A DNA stretch of 4,687 nt from a virus (lineage: Duplodnaviria > Heunggongvirae > Uroviricota > Caudoviricetes): the IMG/VR virus record IMGVR_UViG_2778261537_000010, positions 1 through 4,687 of that record, one strand, 5' to 3'. Under the pieces are notes generated by a model, which ran no database searches, was not told where the DNA came from, and saw nothing but the letters and a program-made list of their open reading frames with translations. Shown piece by piece: positions 1 through 4,687 of this stretch; the stretch's first letter is position 1, and each line of letters begins with the position of its first letter. The translations under genes were made by a program, and so were the position numbers.

Positions 1-813
1 CGCAAGGGGGCCACGGCTGCCAGCGGGTATATGCGCTGGGAAGGTGTCAGCGATGGCCTGAAGGTGACCGCCGGGAGCGTGATTCAGCGCGATGACCTGG
101 TTCAGTACATGGCAACTGCCGATGCAACCAGCTCCGGTGGTGTCCTGCGTGTGCCGATCACTTGCTCAACTACAGGCGCGGTCGGTAACGCTGACGACGG
201 TACGGCATTAATCCTGGTCACGCCGGTGAATGGTCTGCCGTCTTCCGGTGTTGCAGATACCCTGACTGGCGGATTCGATACTGAAGATCTGGAAACGTGG
301 CGCGCCCGCGTCATTGAGCGGTATTACTGGACGCCGCAGGGCGGGGCTGACGGGGACTATGTCGTCTGGGCTAAAGAAGTGCCCGGCATTACCCGCGCAT
401 GGACATACCGTCACTGGATGGGTACGGGAACTGTCGGTGTGATGATTGCCAGCAGTGACCTGATTAATCCCATTCCGGAAGAATCAACGGAAACGGCGGC
501 AAGACAACATATCGGGCCACTGGCCCCGGTGGCAGGCTCTGATTTGTATGTGTTCAGGCCGGTGGCACATACGGTGGATTTTCATATCCGCGTGACGCCG
601 GACACACCGGAAATACGGGCTGCCATCACCGCGGAGTTGCGTTCGTTCCTGCTGCGTGATGGTTATCCGCAGGGAGAACTGAAGGTATCGCGTATCAGTG
701 AGGCGATTTCCGGTGCGAACGGGGAATACAGCCATCAGTTGCTTGCACCGGCAGACAATATCTCCATTGCAAAAAATGAACTTGCGGTTCTGGGGACGAT
801 TTCATGGACGTGA
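1..813 (+). CDS. Baseplate J-like protein (Mu gp47 / P2 gpJ family), C-terminal part; 5' end lies upstream of the window
   Basis: The frame of the 31..813 ORF stays open back to position 1 (codons from nt 1: [11 protein letters not shown]...), so the gene begins outside the window. Sampled GC is high (41/60 over nt 301-360). The product is a soluble protein whose stop overlaps the start of the next gene (ATGGACGTGA, nt 804-813), which is typical of phage tail operons. Family assignment is from recalled similarity to baseplate J proteins and from gene order (J-like, I-like, fibre, chaperone), not from a search. Confidence 0.7.
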
Positions 814-1388
814 CAAACGATGATTACATCCGTCTGTTGTCGGCACTGCTGCCGCCCGGTCCGGCATGGTCAGCCAGCGATCCGGCGATTGCCGGTGCGG
901 CACCGTCATTAACCCGCGTTCATCAGCGTGCGGATGCCCTGATGCGGGAGCTGGATCCGCGCACCACCACCGAACTGATAAACCGCTGGGAGCGTCTGTG
1001 CGGCCTGCCGGATGAATGTATTCCCGCAGGGACACAGACCCTTCGCCAGCGTCAGCAACGGCTGGATGCGAAGGTTAATCTGGCGGGCGGCATCAATGAG
1101 GATTTTTATCTTGCACAGCTTGCTGCCCTGGGCAGACCAGACGCCACCATCACGCGATACGATAAAAGCACTTTCACCTGCTCATCGGCCTGTACTGACG
1201 CTGTGAATGCGCCGGAATGGCGGTATTACTGGCAGGTCAACATGCCAGCCGCCACCAACACCACCTGGATGACATGTGGCGACCCCTGTGATTCCGCACT
1301 GCGTATCTGGGGGGACACCGTTGTCGAATGTGTGCTTAACAAACTCTGCCCGTCGCATACCTACGTAATTTTTAAATATCCGGAGTAA
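804..1388 (+). CDS. Phage baseplate/tail protein, Mu gp48 / P2 gpI-like (DUF2313-type, YmfQ-like)
   Basis: 194-aa ORF with an ATG at 804 that overlaps the upstream stop by 10 nt. Its N-terminus ([23 protein letters not shown]...) matches my recollection of the YmfQ/gp48-like family found next to baseplate J in Mu-like prophages. It ends 3 nt before the tail fibre start. Confidence 0.7.
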
Positions 1389-1391
1389 TCC

Positions 1392-2024
1392 ATGCATCGT
1401 ATAGACACAAAAACCGCGCAGAAGGATAAGTTCGGCGCGGGTAAGAACGGTTTTACCCGTGGTAACCCCCAGACCGGCACGCCAGCCACCGATCTGGATG
1501 ATGACTACTTTGACATGTTGCAGGAGGAACTTTGCAGCGTGGTGGAGGCATCCGGTGCCAGCCTGGAGAAGGGGCGGCATGACCAGCTGCTTACAGCGCT
1601 TCGTGCGCTGCTGTTAAGCCGCAAGAATCCGTTTGGTGATATCAAATCGGATGGCACGGTGAAAACGGCTCTCGAAAACCTTGATTTGGGAGAGTTGGCC
1701 TTGGCAGGGGTAATGACAGGCCTTTTTGATACCAATGGCTATCTGAAACTCCCAGCAATTATTGATGGCAAGCGAAAAATTTTGATATTTCAATGGATGT
1801 CCATTTCAGCCAGTGCCACACCATCTTATTACAATTTACCTATCGCATGGCCAACCAGAGGGCTACATGCATTTGCTGTTGCTCAAACGGGGATTGATCA
1901 GTCAACCACTGCCTCTGCATTTATTGAAACTTCCTTGGTTAATCAACAAGTTTTTGTTAAGTGTATTAACTCTGCTGGGGCATTACAATCCCGTGGTGTT
2001 AGTTTATTTATGATTGGTATGTGA
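1392..2024 (+). CDS. Short tail fibre protein: conserved N-terminal anchor domain plus a divergent AT-rich C-terminal tip
   Basis: 210-aa ORF with a GGAG Shine-Dalgarno at 1381-1384, 7 nt upstream of the ATG at 1392. The N-terminus (MHRIDTKTAQKDKFGAGKNGFTRGNPQTGTPATDLDDDYFDMLQEEL...) is the recognisable conserved N-terminal region of enterobacterial prophage tail fibres. GC falls from 36/60 (nt 1441-1500) to 20/60 (nt 1921-1980) within the gene. It is followed directly by a chaperone gene. Confidence 0.7.
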   Translation: MHRIDTKTAQKDKFGAGKNGFTRGNPQTGTPATDLDDDYFDMLQEELCSVVEASGASLEKGRHDQLLTALRALLLSRKNPFGDIKSDGTVKTALENLDLGELALAGVMTGLFDTNGYLKLPAIIDGKRKILIFQWMSISASATPSYYNLPIAWPTRGLHAFAVAQTGIDQSTTASAFIETSLVNQQVFVKCINSAGALQSRGVSLFMIGM

Positions 2025-2032
2025 GAACAAAA

Positions 2033-2425
2033 ATGGATATTTCCTATAAATTCGCTAATGGCGTATTTTACCCCAGCGATATTGAATATAAATCGATTCC
2101 AGAGAGTGCGATTGATGTTACCTATGAAGAATATGCTAAAGCCATGAGACGTCCGACAGGTTATAATTTTACGGTGGACAAAGAAGGTATAGTAACGCTG
2201 ATTGAACATGTAATTTCAGAAGAAGAGTGGAAACTGGACATAGAGGCGCAACTTGCATTATTACGACAGAGGGCTGATAACGAAATAGGATGGCGGCAAT
2301 ATGCAGTTGAAAGAGGTAAAGCGACGGAAGAAGAAGTAGTTGCCTTAATTAAATGGCAGGATTACAAGTTAGAGTTAATGCGAGTAGATACATCAAACCC
2401 AGTATTGCCTACCATCCCTGAATAA
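2033..2425 (+). CDS. Tail fibre assembly chaperone (Tfa / P2 gpG / Mu U family)
   Basis: The ORF track starts this ORF at a GTG at 2021, which overlaps the fibre stop; I prefer the ATG at 2033 (MDISYKF...), but either start is possible. The C-terminus (...ALIKWQDYKLELMRVDTSNPVLPTIPE) fits the conserved W-x-x-Y-x-x-x-L-x-R-V-D ... P motif at the end of Tfa proteins. Position immediately after a fibre gene and low GC (21/60 over nt 2041-2100) agree. Confidence 0.7.
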   Translation: MDISYKFANGVFYPSDIEYKSIPESAIDVTYEEYAKAMRRPTGYNFTVDKEGIVTLIEHVISEEEWKLDIEAQLALLRQRADNEIGWRQYAVERGKATEEEVVALIKWQDYKLELMRVDTSNPVLPTIPE

Positions 2426-2433
2426 GATTATTC

Positions 2434-2461
2434 CCCTCTATCGCGCAATAACGATAGAGGG
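2434..2461. terminator. Candidate bidirectional intrinsic terminator between convergent genes
   Basis: Perfect 10-bp inverted repeat CCCTCTATCG (2434-2443) / CGATAGAGGG (2452-2461) with an 8-nt loop. It lies 8 nt after the chaperone stop (2423-2425) and 5 nt before the stop of the convergent - strand gene (2467-2469). Flanks are only moderately U-rich on either strand (ATTTATCAT on +, AATAATCTTATT on -), so terminator strength is uncertain. Confidence 0.45.
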
Positions 2462-2466
2462 ATTTA

Positions 2467-3783
2467 TCATCTCATTCTCTTGATAATAAAACCAAGTAAT
2501 ATGACAAATTGAACCAGAGAGCACAGGATTGAGAAATGGAGATACCTATAGTCAGATGCAGGGCTGACGAAGAAGTGAGGCACTGCAAATATGAAGCATG
2601 AGACGCCCAGCAACAAGCCTATACATTTTATACTGCTTCTGATAAAAATAAATGAAATTGTTGATACCAGAGCAAGAAGTAAATAAATCCATGGCAAGTA
2701 AATATAAGGCATAGATTTTACTGTTTCCACATATAAAGAGCTTGCCTTATTCGGTGTGAATGAGAACCCCCATTGGTTTTCAACACTTCCTTCCTGCACG
2801 ACCCATGCTGGAGTGCTACTACCAACCCTAAGCAATTCATTGAATGTGTCCAATCTTACTTTTAAGTAAGACAATGGGTTATTCTTTATTTCATAAATCC
2901 ATTTTTTACCAAGTGCATTGATTTCATCACTGTTTTCGGTTGTAAGATTGCCAGCCTTTGTATTGTAGAACATTAAATTGTTGCTCCCAGGCCAATAGAA
3001 AGACTTAACATTATTTTTGGTGATGCCGACTTTATCAACGATATATTCAGGAAGTAAAATATCTCCCTTTTCCACGCTCATACCAAGCAGATCATAGCTC
3101 TGTATATATTGAAGTGGTGATGTCTTGGTCACGGTAAGCGTGCTAACAATAAGCACAGGTAATGCTATTATTATTACGTTTGATACGATGTAAAAAGATA
3201 CTTTCTTGTATATGCTATTGCATTTTTTGTCATAATAAAACCACCATGCCATGATTACTAGTGCAACTGGAATGCCATTTGTTTTACTTCCGCATGCAAG
3301 CGCCATTATAAGAATCAGGATAATAAGCCTTGTTATAGACTGCTTGTTATTTTCGATGGAGTTGAATGTTATCCCAATGGACAAAATCATTAGTGATGAG
3401 AAAACGACGTCTTTCCATATCTGCGCGGTAATAAGAATAACTTGAGGTGCAGCTCCAGCTATCAAAATAGCAATAGATAAATAGCCTATTCTCTTATGTA
3501 AGGTTATAGATAAAAGGTAAAGACCAAGCCAATAACAAATCTGGTTTTGAATAAGAAAAATGCCAGGCCCAGAGTCGATTAAATTTAACTTGCTCCACCA
3601 CCATGCCATTATAACAGGTTGCCAAGAATTATAATGACCAGTAAGGGATTCATAATATTGAGTAGTGGAGTCAACGCTCATCCATCCAGGATAAAACGTC
3701 ATTGTACAAAACATCATGAATGCAAGTGATGTTAATATGTATATATATTTATAATTCAATTTACTATTTGACTTTAAGGGCAT
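2467..3783 (-). CDS. Polytopic inner-membrane protein of unknown function; candidate lysogenic-conversion enzyme (gtr-type / GT-C-like O-antigen glycosyltransferase is the leading hypothesis, by inference only)
   Basis: A 1317-nt ORF in roughly 35%-GC DNA (21/60 over nt 3301-3360); an uninterrupted frame this long in AT-rich sequence is strong evidence of real coding. The translation has about 8 hydrophobic segments in the first ~220 aa, with an acidic/aromatic loop after the first one (PGWMSVDSTTQYYESL). A ~150-aa hydrophilic region follows (TKTSPLQYIQ...SLYVETVKSMPY), then three C-terminal hydrophobic segments. Its size, AT-richness and convergent placement next to a tail fibre assembly gene resemble known prophage gtr(type) genes, but it could equally be a Wzy- or ligase-like protein or something unrelated. 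Confidence 0.6.
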   Translation of the reverse strand: MPLKSNSKLNYKYIYILTSLAFMMFCTMTFYPGWMSVDSTTQYYESLTGHYNSWQPVIMAWWWSKLNLIDSGPGIFLIQNQICYWLGLYLLSITLHKRIGYLSIAILIAGAAPQVILITAQIWKDVVFSSLMILSIGITFNSIENNKQSITRLIILILIMALACGSKTNGIPVALVIMAWWFYYDKKCNSIYKKVSFYIVSNVIIIALPVLIVSTLTVTKTSPLQYIQSYDLLGMSVEKGDILLPEYIVDKVGITKNNVKSFYWPGSNNLMFYNTKAGNLTTENSDEINALGKKWIYEIKNNPLSYLKVRLDTFNELLRVGSSTPAWVVQEGSVENQWGFSFTPNKASSLYVETVKSMPYIYLPWIYLLLALVSTISFIFIRSSIKCIGLLLGVSCFIFAVPHFFVSPASDYRYLHFSILCSLVQFVILLGFIIKRMR

Positions 3784-3927
3784 AAATACACTCTTTCAAC
3801 ATGTATAATAAAGTTATGAAATGTAGAGCATTATGCACCAATATTAGATTCTCTTCCATATATTAGTTAGAAATTGATGAGAAATATACCTCTCTGAACG
3901 GGAAAGTACAGAATTTTACAGTTGAAA
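3784..3927 (-). promoter_or_regulatory. AT-rich upstream region of the membrane-protein gene; probable promoter region, elements not resolved
   Basis: About 145 nt of very AT-rich non-coding sequence between the ATG at 3783 and the inferred IS terminus. On the - strand it contains -10-like hexamers (CATAAT, TATTAT, TATACA) and a weak Shine-Dalgarno (AAGAG) about 10 nt before the ATG. No confident -35/-10 pair could be assigned by eye. Confidence 0.25.
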
Positions 3928-4262
3928 TGACCTGCCCCCAGGATTAGATACAACTCTCAGTTAGTAACGTCGGAATCTTCATTCTCAGAATGACCCTTTC
4001 TCCAGCGCGCCGCAAATTCAGACGGTGTCTGATAATTCAGCGTGGAGTGCGGGCGGCACTCGTTATAATCCTGCCGCCAGTCATTAATGATTTTCCTGGC
4101 ATGAACGATATCGCTGAACCAGTGCTCATTCAGACATTCATCGCGAAATCGTCCGTTAAAGCTCTCAATAAATCCGTTCTGCGTTGGCTTGCCCGGCTGG
4201 ATTAAGCGCAACTCAACACAATGCTCAAAGGCCCATTGATCCAGGCAAGGGTTTCTGGTCTT
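3928..4262 (-). mobile_element. IS3-family insertion sequence remnant (one terminus plus the 3' part of the transposase gene); the 5' part of the element is missing
   Basis: Contains the C-terminal transposase fragment described in the next feature. On the + strand the sequence from 3928 (TGACCTGCCCCCAGGATTAGATACAAC) begins with TG and has a G/C-rich block like the terminal inverted repeats of IS2-group elements as I recall them. The upper boundary is approximate: recognisable transposase sequence is lost between roughly 4245 and 4280. Confidence 0.6.
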
Positions 4263-4277
4263 ATGGCAATAATAAAA
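3957..4277 (-). pseudogene. Truncated IS3-family transposase (OrfB), C-terminal ~100 aa only
   Basis: The - strand frame translates to ...LDQWAFEHCVELRLIQPGKPTQNGFIESFNGRFRDECLNEHWFSDIVHARKIINDWRQDYNECRPHSTLNYQTPSEFAARW..., the conserved C-terminal region of IS3-family transposases. The 84-aa ORF in the track begins at a TTG, and the frame stays open upstream only to an in-frame stop at 4278-4280. Residues before LDQWA do not look transposase-like, and the catalytic core and N-terminal half are absent. Confidence 0.7.
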
Positions 4278-4410
4278 TCATTACTGATACTGGCTGCGGT
4301 AGTTGAAACCGCAGACACGTCGTATGCAAGAACGTGCTGCGGTTGGCTGGTAAACTTCCGATAGTGCGAGTATTGAATGATTTCCAGCCGTTACTGATTT
4401 TACGTGCTAA

Positions 4411-4659
4411 TTAGTGAACAAACCACTCGTCAGCAGATTCCCAGGTATCTTTCAGAGTTTCCTGAACAAAAGTTTTAGCTGAATCTTTATCGGCGGTGCG
4501 CGTAACAGAAAGGCCATCGTTACTGGTGGCTTTTACGATCACCTCTACATCGTCATAACGCTTACTGATGCGTCGGGTTAATTCTTCCTTTAACGCATCC
4601 ACAGCACCGTTTGGCATTTTAGTCATTTTTTCTTTGGCTATGCAGATTTCAATACGCAT
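4411..4659 (-). CDS. DinI-family protein (DNA-damage-inducible protein I-like)
   Basis: 82-aa ORF ([35 protein letters not shown]...[17 protein letters not shown]) that shares the MRIE..IAK, DAL..EL.RRI, LSV, QET..WESAD.WFV pattern with E. coli DinI as I recall it. A GAGGG Shine-Dalgarno lies 6 nt upstream of the ATG on the - strand. It is too divergent from chromosomal dinI to use that symbol. Confidence 0.8.
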
Positions 4660-4672
4660 AAAAGTCCCTCTA

Positions 4673-4687
4673 TACTGTGTTTGTATA
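4673..4687. promoter_or_regulatory. Partial LexA (SOS) box cut by the window edge, upstream of the DinI-like gene
   Basis: The + strand reads TACTGT GTTTGTAT A at 4673-4687, i.e. the TACTGT half-site, an 8-nt spacer and the first base of the expected ACAG half-site, against the consensus TACTGT-N8-ACAGTA. The remaining bases lie beyond nt 4687. It sits about 12 nt upstream of the SD, where an operator would overlap the promoter. Confidence 0.3.

Follow-up and report, generated by a model that had tools for sequence, protein, structure and literature searches.

What would a temperate phage do with a polytopic membrane protein that sits where the prophage gtrABC systems of serotype conversion keep their glycosyltransferase, when neither gtrA nor gtrB accompanies it? 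The question is raised by a stretch of caudoviral DNA of 4,687 nucleotides (IMG/VR record IMGVR_UViG_2778261537_000010, positions 1 to 4,687), termed the window throughout, which carries an AT-rich open reading frame (ORF) of 438 amino acids (aa) convergent with the tail-fibre module. An original prediction, made from the letters of the window, correctly described this ORF, the hairpin between it and the chaperone gene, and the lack of gtrA/gtrB partners, and saw in it either a gtr-type gene that had lost those partners or an unrelated surface-modifying or superinfection-exclusion protein. The results presented here point instead, with a probability of about 0.5, to a lysogenic-conversion enzyme of the GT-C glycosyltransferase fold that draws its sugar donor from a cassette of genes on the chromosome of the host.

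That the protein is a GT-C glycosyltransferase working at the periplasmic face is very probable. Its AlphaFold2 (AF2) model has a pLDDT of 95.6 and, taken together with hydropathy, gives seven N-terminal and three C-terminal membrane helices, with a hydrophilic domain of 149 aa (residues 215–363) between transmembrane helices (TM) 7 and 8; of the eight N-terminal and three C-terminal hydrophobic segments counted originally, the latter three stand, as does the intervening domain of about 150 aa, while the eight are reduced to seven. The DSSP assignment has a single helix at 74–110, divided here between TM2 and TM3 at H95-K96-R97 on the strength of hydropathy and the positive-inside rule. In the best topology, a model of ten TM helices with both termini cytoplasmic, the positive-inside rule is satisfied at every loop, and all invariant residues (P32, G33, D38, S39, P56, G72, K124, D125, D231, W295, Y306, R310, P364, F399, D411, R413, Y414 and L415) map to the predicted periplasmic side. 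A cytoplasmic N-terminus is also indicated by the many homologues with a cytoplasmic GT2 domain fused at that end, and the same fusions place the first periplasmic loop (EL1) outside the cytoplasm. Thus, the acidic loop around D38 and, from the orientation of the N-terminus and the positive-inside rule, the domain at 215–363 are both predicted to be periplasmic, as the earlier suggestion of a GT-C-like periplasmic active site had anticipated.

The further hallmarks of the fold are in place: a polytopic core with a conserved N-terminal 7-TM module, an EL1 bearing two short helices (37–48 and 57–66 in the model), and a conserved acidic residue at the start of that loop on the extracytoplasmic side. 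EL1 is the region of highest conservation (mean column conservation 0.64), D38 is invariant in 58/58 sequences, and the PGWMSxDS loop with its two short helices matches what is expected of a GT-C catalytic loop, so that by GT-C precedent D38 is the putative catalytic aspartate; the DYRY motif of the last loop is a candidate phosphate- or donor-binding site. In structural comparisons the protein O-mannosyltransferases Pmt4 and Pmt2 were among the best matches and AftA and AftB gave good ones, upholding the GT-C fold that the original prediction had proposed to search for, and the protein ends after TM10, without a C-terminal beta-rich domain. Identities as a transporter, Wzy polymerase, WaaL ligase, SEDS protein or AT3 acyltransferase were rejected on fold or profile.

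Sequence searches place the protein outside the catalogued families. No match was obtained in Pfam, NCBIfam, PHROGs or PADLOC, nor by tblastn against 50,697 GenBank phages; a sequence-profile search of the PDB returned a chance match only (EntV, E 0.036), and a fold search of BFVD returned weak matches only, from an Oenococcus phage and from archaeal viruses, all of them uncharacterised proteins. Membership in the gtr(type) family, as first envisaged, finds no support: the family profile aligned by hhalign with a probability of 0.1% to YfdI, the one Gtr(type) protein compared from a group whose members are mutually diverse, and Pfam, Glucos_trans_II included, gave no match for the window protein. 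The same profile showed no relation by hhalign to E. coli ArnT (GT83).

The protein nonetheless belongs to a large family. A profile search of 1.84 billion cluster representatives recovered 8,171 at E <= 1e-3, 1,984 of them at E <= 1e-30, and a scan of species-representative genomes found 410 relatives, chiefly in Burkholderiales and Alphaproteobacteria. The family motifs PGWxSxDS, WKD and DYRYL are all present in the window protein and the homology is full-length; it aligns to P0009, a paralogue encoded in an operon of E. coli O101/O162, at E 1e-120 with 45% identity over 95% of its length. Members of the family are either GT2 fusions or components of a conserved seven-gene cassette. Among the 58 closest homologues, 19 are proteins of ~715 aa with a GT2 domain at the N-terminus, whose best NCBIfam matches are polyprenyl-phosphate sugar synthases (AglJ, dolichyl-phosphate hexose transferase, ArnC, PgfS); in E. 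coli O101/O162 and Citrobacter, unfused paralogues (43–45% identity) form the end of an operon flanked by gnd and ugd. The partners of the family are thus not the gtrA and gtrB that had been expected but a TM-less GT2, an SMR/EamA-type 4-TM protein, a GtrB-like protein and three redox or isomerase enzymes, and from the fusion or adjacency to GT2 and the company of the 4-TM protein the donor would be a polyprenyl-phosphate-linked sugar. Unusual architectures also occur among family members (P0013 and P0014, 618–631 aa; P0132 and P0133, 1,341–1,386 aa; L021:7950-11714): some are extended at the N-terminus by ~190 aa that comprise a soluble domain and a further TM helix, some have a long C-terminal extension, and some repeat the whole GT-C unit in tandem, with three to four matched stretches.

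The cassette is spread across Proteobacteria: Massilia, Pseudoduganella, Duganella, Variovorax, Achromobacter, a Coxiellaceae metagenome-assembled genome (MAG) and one alphaproteobacterium all keep it as a unit, and it is also present in another Wzt-type O-antigen locus. Most of its accessory proteins match one another across cassettes at phmmer E 1e-90 to 1e-122, whereas the GT-C component is much less conserved, which is the pattern expected if the donor is fixed and the acceptor varies. To judge by its composition, it may remodel a lipid-linked sugar along Arn-like or DprE1/E2-like lines; BLASTP found no detectable similarity between its SMR-type protein and ArnE, and no description of the biochemistry of the seven-gene cassette was found in the literature. 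Its 336-aa protein, annotated as hypothetical, has 25% identity to YfdH (E 5e-12) and no Pfam GT2 match, and carries YD-HQTD where GtrB has DVDLQD; it may partner the soluble GT2 in the membrane, in a diverged or non-catalytic form.

The E. coli strains with the gnd-ugd operon have an O-antigen cluster of the O89/O101/O162 wzm/wzt type. O162 differs from O101 by a side branch of 4-deoxy-D-arabino-hexose (ara4dHex), and the gnd-ugd genes have been proposed, in an untested suggestion, to make and transfer this sugar (Liu et al. 2019, FEMS review, PMC7685785); the link between the operon and ara4dHex is still described as a hypothesis in Weerdenburg et al. 2026 (PMC13168486). In O101 the cassette is disrupted by an IS. 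A search of the available literature found no paper on the biosynthesis of 4-deoxy-arabino-hexose. If the proposal holds, ara4dHex could be the sugar that the phage enzyme handles.

The phage gene itself stands alone. In the window, and likewise throughout the one complete copy of the prophage (E. coli 2017.17.03CC, NZ_AP027829, between yjjG and prfC), there is no gtrA, gtrB or GT2 gene; an insertion sequence (IS) remnant of ISSen4 and dinI are all that lies immediately upstream, and the fusion or adjacency to a TM-less GT2 and an SMR-type 4-TM protein seen elsewhere in the family is lacking in cis. The partners are found in trans. Of 5,426 complete E. coli genomes surveyed, six have the gnd-ugd cassette, and the single carrier of the phage gene is among them. 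A wzm-wzt pair of the O89/O101/O162 type is present in 315 complete genomes, the classical type (>= 99% identity) being restricted to the six with the cassette, and the phage gene is in 0 of the 309 others (Onovel32/O89-type rfb, no cassette). Sequencing run SRR12470807 contains both the phage gene and a cassette gene, and so do six further assemblies in the cluster membership tables, as judged by a common locus-tag prefix or by protein accession numbers that differ by a few hundred to 1,500 (EEX2881442/EEX2882573, AWE03_002359/AWE03_003859, HBA9933336/HBA9934809, HDQ3756972/HDQ3755709, HEB0559401/HEB0558304 and HFI8568740/HFI8568951), with one more co-occurrence suggested by a common contig of 4,986,153 bp. 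The cassette was present in trans in every genome with the phage gene where this was checkable. A parallel might be struck with Massilia eburnea and a Pseudoduganella MAG, each of which has one cassette-linked copy of the GT-C gene and one orphan copy elsewhere.

The orphan state is shared by the nearest relatives. The 78% identical orthologue (P0003) lies alone beside the tfa and fibre genes of an unrelated E217-like tail, with no ORF, no gtrB-like gene and no IS in the 616 nt upstream; the 74% relative (P0004) lies in an IS-rich island next to fliE, among IS3 fragments, and the 51% relative (P0005) at the end of a Wzx-type O-antigen cluster. Since these closest relatives are also orphans and the partners reside in the host O-antigen locus, a loss of partners through the IS, as was originally conjectured, is not needed to account for the arrangement. 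Moreover, between the window gene and the 78% orthologue the ratio of non-synonymous to synonymous divergence (dN/dS) is 0.134/1.135 = 0.12 over 438 colinear codons; the orphan lineage is under purifying selection, and the gene is therefore not simply decaying. It is intact on roughly 180 contigs (the summed contig counts of full-length forms), as two alleles, and the module dinI-IS remnant-GT-C-tfa is identical at two attachment (att) sites, dusA, where the integrase is adjacent, and prfC; a few truncated copies also exist. Beside the 74% orthologue, in the yedD-fliE island, a 453-aa ORF without a Pfam match adjoins it among the IS3 fragments (L011:3602-4963). Public annotations of identical DNA (window 3682-3783) call the phage protein as 438, 411 or 404 aa, the shorter calls beginning at M28 or M35 and thereby losing TM1; comparison with homologues favours the 438-aa start. 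The 404-aa cluster members were considered as N-terminally truncated pseudogenes, a reading rejected because the underlying DNA is identical and the choice of start codon alone differs, making these forms artefacts of annotation.

The position of the gene in the phage speaks to the kind of function it might have. At the dusA site the order is int, dinI, IS remnant and the GT-C gene facing tfa and the fibre gene; in CPS-53 of K-12, intS-gtrA-gtrB-gtrS (yfdGHI) faces tfaS/yfdK in the same arrangement. The comparison to a gtr(type) slot, between int and tfa/fibre and convergent with tfa as in CPS-53 and SfV-type prophages, has thus held good. Window bases 1-1693 match 1,631 of the 5,426 genomes and the bases beyond 1693 match 2, so that the short tail-fibre gene is mosaic, with a breakpoint near 1693 (1650-1750) at which GC falls from ~0.53 to ~0.40; the fibre tip, tfa and the GT-C gene behave as one exchangeable low-GC cassette. 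At the locus of the 78% orthologue (L010), in a different tail background, a related tfa (55%) and fibre C-terminus (49% identical) recur, while in the sister prophage of E. coli P470 the fibre and tfa genes are 93% identical and an AT3-SGNH acyltransferase occupies the place of the GT-C gene. AT3-SGNH is the architecture of O-antigen acetyltransferases. Together, the contexts in P470, CPS-53 and the 78% orthologue identify a slot for surface-modification cargo linked to the receptor-binding module.

These observations can be brought together in a mechanism. Residing in the inner membrane with its N-terminus in the cytoplasm and ten TM helices, the enzyme would be expressed from the prophage as a lysogenic-conversion function and would carry its periplasmic active site around D38 of EL1. 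The gnd-ugd cassette of the host would make and flip an undecaprenyl-phosphate (Und-P)-linked donor, which is why gtrA and gtrB would not be needed, and the phage enzyme would move a single sugar in the periplasm onto a finished cell-surface glycan. It would then be a second transferase on the same donor pool, acting presumably at a different acceptor position from that of the paralogous chromosomal GT-C. The acceptor would most probably be the O-antigen of O101/O162, a product of the ABC-transporter route, and the resulting epitope change would also alter the receptor for phages with the co-inherited fibre tip. The parts of this proposal differ in strength: from context, an O-antigen acceptor is likely; a donor from the O101/O162 cassette, argued from family linkage and co-occurrence, is evenly balanced; and the most specific version, in which the phage carries a terminal GT-C alone, uses host-made Und-P-4-deoxy-D-arabino-hexose or a relative of it, and is limited in its conversion to one serogroup lineage, is put forward tentatively and with rather less weight. 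On that version, one of the two ara4dHex sites reported in O162, on GlcNAc (form 1) or on GalNAc (form 2), may be the work of the phage enzyme.

Several points weigh against this proposal. The putative function of the GT-C family is read from sequence, fold and genomic context, the role of the cassette in ara4dHex synthesis is itself a published hypothesis, and the 10-TM topology rests on the DSSP assignment of a model, hydropathy and the positive-inside rule. In one subgroup of the family (P0011, 42% identity) the partners are another GT2, DUF2304 and EamA, and the redox enzymes are missing; with such different partners the donor is not uniform across the family, which probably uses more than one. 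The co-occurrence with the cassette could equally come from phage host range or clonal descent as from biochemical dependence, and, the classical O101/O162 rfb being physically linked to the cassette, the two effects are inseparable here; carriers without the cassette may exist outside the genomes surveyed. The 78%, 74% and 51% relatives are known from contigs only, with the rest of the genome out of view. A promoter scan upstream of the GT-C ATG gave no convincing sigma-70 match. Finally, the copy in the single complete carrier is interrupted by IS2 in its 3' part, leaving an annotated fragment of 366 aa (L001:12486-13714), so that this strain can do without the gene despite having a host cassette annotated as intact.

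The ambiguity of the co-occurrence leaves room for an enzyme that works as a gtr(type)-like glucosyltransferase, using Und-P-glucose supplied by the GtrA/GtrB of another prophage, or a ubiquitous donor such as Und-P-Ara4N (Ara4N, 4-amino-4-deoxy-L-arabinose), with the association with O101/O162 reflecting host range. The slot is the one that gtrS occupies in CPS-53; gtrA and gtrB are interchangeable between gtr clusters in S. flexneri serotype conversion; the co-inheritance of fibre tip and GT-C means that host range could follow the O101 backbone; and the P0011 subgroup illustrates that the family can work with another GT2. Such an explanation is nevertheless unlikely, for the protein has no sequence relation to YfdI, its nearest partnered relatives pair with the cassette and not with gtrAB, and none of the 309 complete genomes with an Onovel32/O89-type rfb but no cassette carries the gene; moreover, argW, the one site inspected for gtrAB in the sole complete carrier, is empty, so that the CPS-53 gtrABS is absent there.

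Less probable still is that the gene is stranded cargo without function, its upstream partners removed by an ISSen4 insertion and deletion and its sequence as yet undecayed. Between dinI and the gene there is indeed an IS remnant, 118 nt from the start codon, IS3 fragments surround the P0004 copy as well, the NZ_AP027829 copy has been hit by IS2 and a few copies are truncated; against these stand the dN/dS of 0.12 across orphan lineages, the colinear ORF of 438 codons, the roughly 180 contigs with an intact copy, which include both att sites and two alleles, the artefactual nature of the 404-aa forms, the 78% orthologue that has neither IS nor partner in the 616 nt upstream, and the orphan paralogues of Massilia and Pseudoduganella. 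A comparably low probability attaches to a GT-C protein directed at another target (enterobacterial common antigen, lipopolysaccharide core, capsule or, as with Pmt, a periplasmic protein) or to non-enzymatic superinfection exclusion. The acceptor is not pinned down by the present results and Pmt4/Pmt2 are among the best structural matches, but those relatives that have partners are located within O-antigen or polysaccharide loci, a gene of the O-acetyltransferase type occupies the same slot in the sister prophage, and the invariant acidic and basic residues, periplasmic in the predicted topology, argue for catalysis; with no PADLOC or PHROG match, the exclusion protein of the original prediction gained no support.

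Beyond these main subjects, the surrounding features are listed in Table 1. The GC of the 438-aa gene is 0.359 against 0.578 in window bases 1-1400, which hold the baseplate genes. The convergent GT-C and tfa genes have the hairpin between their stops (2467 and 2425, respectively); a terminator scan flagged it on the + strand only, and a role as the - strand terminator of the GT-C gene is plausible. The distance from IS to start codon, first put at about 145 nt, was approximately right, being 118 nt to the ISSen4 homology; it is in this leader, identical across independent contigs at the two att sites, that the promoter and ribosome-binding site of the GT-C gene must sit. Salmonella gtr operons bear a Dam/OxyR phase-variation signature; the leader has no GATC site, and hence no sign of phase variation of that type.

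Table 1. Features of the window and of the comparison loci (positions refer to the window unless preceded by a locus number)
Feature	Position	Strand	Remarks
Orphan GT-C-fold glycosyltransferase gene	2467..3783	-	438 aa, ATG start, 35.9% GC
EL1, predicted first periplasmic loop, codons 31-73	3565..3693	-	motif P32-G33-W-M-S36-x-D38-S39
Soluble, mostly helical domain, codons 215-363	2695..3141	-	invariant D231, W295, Y306, R310; predicted periplasmic
D-Y-R-Y motif, predicted last periplasmic loop, codons 411-414	2542..2553	-	invariant D411, R413, Y414, and L415
Hairpin	2434..2461	.	10-bp stem, 6 G-C pairs, 8-nt loop; from sequence
AT-rich unique leader, IS remnant to ATG	3784..3901	-	118 nt; from sequence
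ISSen4 (IS3-family) 3' remnant	3902..4250	-	349 bp; 95-96% DNA identity to ISSen4 copies
rve_3 fragment ORF inside ISSen4 remnant	3957-4211	-	Pfam rve_3, 5.8e-31
dinI-like gene	4411..4659	-	Pfam DinI 1.2e-19; prophage end, beside int at dusA site or beside prfC
tfa, tail-fibre assembly chaperone	2021..2425	+	low GC; Caudo_TAP 2.6e-13; phrog_188
Short tail fibre	1392..2024	+	N-terminal part to ~1693; C-terminal receptor-binding part ~1694-2024
Mu-like baseplate genes: 3' part of baseplate J	1..1388 region	+	Pfam Baseplate_J 3.3e-47
gp48/YmfQ	804-1388	+	Pfam Phage_Mu_Gp48 9.4e-27
E. coli gnd-ugd cassette	L006:2992-9359		also L022, L024, L025, L027, L028, L031, L035, L052, L107
Cassette gene 1			FAD oxidoreductase (DAO)
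Cassette gene 2	L006:4129-5139		336-aa protein resembling GtrB (YfdH), including two C-terminal TM helices
Cassette gene 3			SDR-type oxidoreductase, 260 aa; PGAP name, weak Pfam match
Cassette gene 4			xylose-isomerase-like TIM barrel
Cassette gene 5			SMR/EamA-type 4-TM protein, 118 aa
Cassette gene 6			TM-less GT2, 270 aa
Cassette gene 7			GT-C of the window protein's family
P0011 module in polysaccharide locus	L108:895-3691		generic GT2, DUF2304, EamA-type 4-TM protein, GT-C
P470 AT3 + SGNH acyltransferase	L020:8466-10439		657 aa, OafA/Oac-like; then IS1, intS, tRNA-Arg

The complete prophage in NZ_AP027829 comprises an integrase, the Dsr1 defence gene, an e14/SfV-like early region, an HK97-type head and a Mu-like tail. 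Its Dsr1, a defence-associated sirtuin, lies beside the integrase (L113:12665-16492); with Dsr1 at the int end, accessory cargo is carried at both ends of the prophage. The dusA arrangement is seen in L013, L014, L016 and L101-L104, and the prfC arrangement, in which the integrase is at the far prophage end, in L015, L105 and L001; in a third arrangement (L106) non-tail genes follow ymfQ.

The system can be set beside several known ones. Prophage-encoded GT-C enzymes that modify O-antigen are well known, and this kind of gene is to that extent already known. With prophage gtrABC (S. flexneri SfV/SfX, Salmonella P22, E. coli CPS-53 yfdGHI) it shares an AT-rich polytopic glycosyltransferase that is int-proximal and convergent with tfa or the fibre gene, and presumably the periplasmic transfer of a sugar from polyprenyl phosphate to finished O-antigen; it differs in that the window prophage lacks gtrA/gtrB, in having no detectable relation to YfdI, and in the partners of the family, which are a TM-less GT2, an SMR/EamA-type 4-TM protein and sugar-modifying enzymes. 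The Arn pathway comprises the GT2 ArnC, ArnD, the SMR-type flippase ArnE/F and the GT-C ArnT (GT83), and the logic of the cassette parallels both it and the three-component systems; the differences are the want of sequence similarity to E. coli ArnT and a target that is here presumably O-antigen and not lipid A. In mycobacterial arabinan synthesis one DPA (decaprenylphosphoryl-arabinose) donor pool serves many GT-C transferases (EmbA/B/C, AftA-D), which mirrors, as an analogy only, a single lipid-linked donor pathway with dispersed GT-C paralogues in Massilia, Pseudoduganella and E. coli; sequence family, donor chemistry and organisms all differ. The last gene (P0009) of the O101/O162 gnd-ugd operon encodes the 45% identical paralogue of the window protein, but the operon copy is chromosomal and linked to its partners, whereas the window copy is prophage-borne and alone. 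Lastly, the three-component pentofuranose system of C. youngae O1/O2 consists of PPPRS, an EmrE-like flippase and a GT136 GT-C (Kelly et al. 2024, PMC11127046). In that system, as would hold for the one proposed here, a GT-C decorates an O-antigen of the ABC-transporter type after polymerisation; auxiliary enzymes remodel the lipid-linked donor, and a small 4-TM protein flips it. Here, the donor synthase is GT2/GtrB-like and not a phosphoribosyltransferase, the accessory enzymes differ, the window copy is phage-borne and unlinked to its partners, and, compared by description, ORF12 of C. youngae (GT136) has a C-terminal carbohydrate-binding module of which the window protein has none.

What is new is a large family without a Pfam or NCBIfam model in the libraries searched and absent from the 50,697 GenBank phages and from PHROGs, a partner set formed by a seven-gene cassette in place of gtrAB, and a phage that carries the transferase alone, apparently dependent on the donor pathway of one host serogroup. 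O101/O162 is a clinically relevant serogroup among extraintestinal pathogenic and multidrug-resistant E. coli and is under consideration for conjugate vaccines (PMC13168486). If the proposal of a host-supplied donor is true, a phage-borne modifier would add heterogeneity to this O-antigen that is invisible to rfb-based genotyping, and serotype conversion by a sugar other than glucose would be achieved through a host-dependent module of a single gene; both the family of ~8,000 clusters and the seven-gene donor pathway would, moreover, become easier to approach. The design rule this suggests is one in which the mobile element carries the acceptor-specific transferase and the host supplies the donor, such that the cargo of the phage would be tied to the serogroup of its host.

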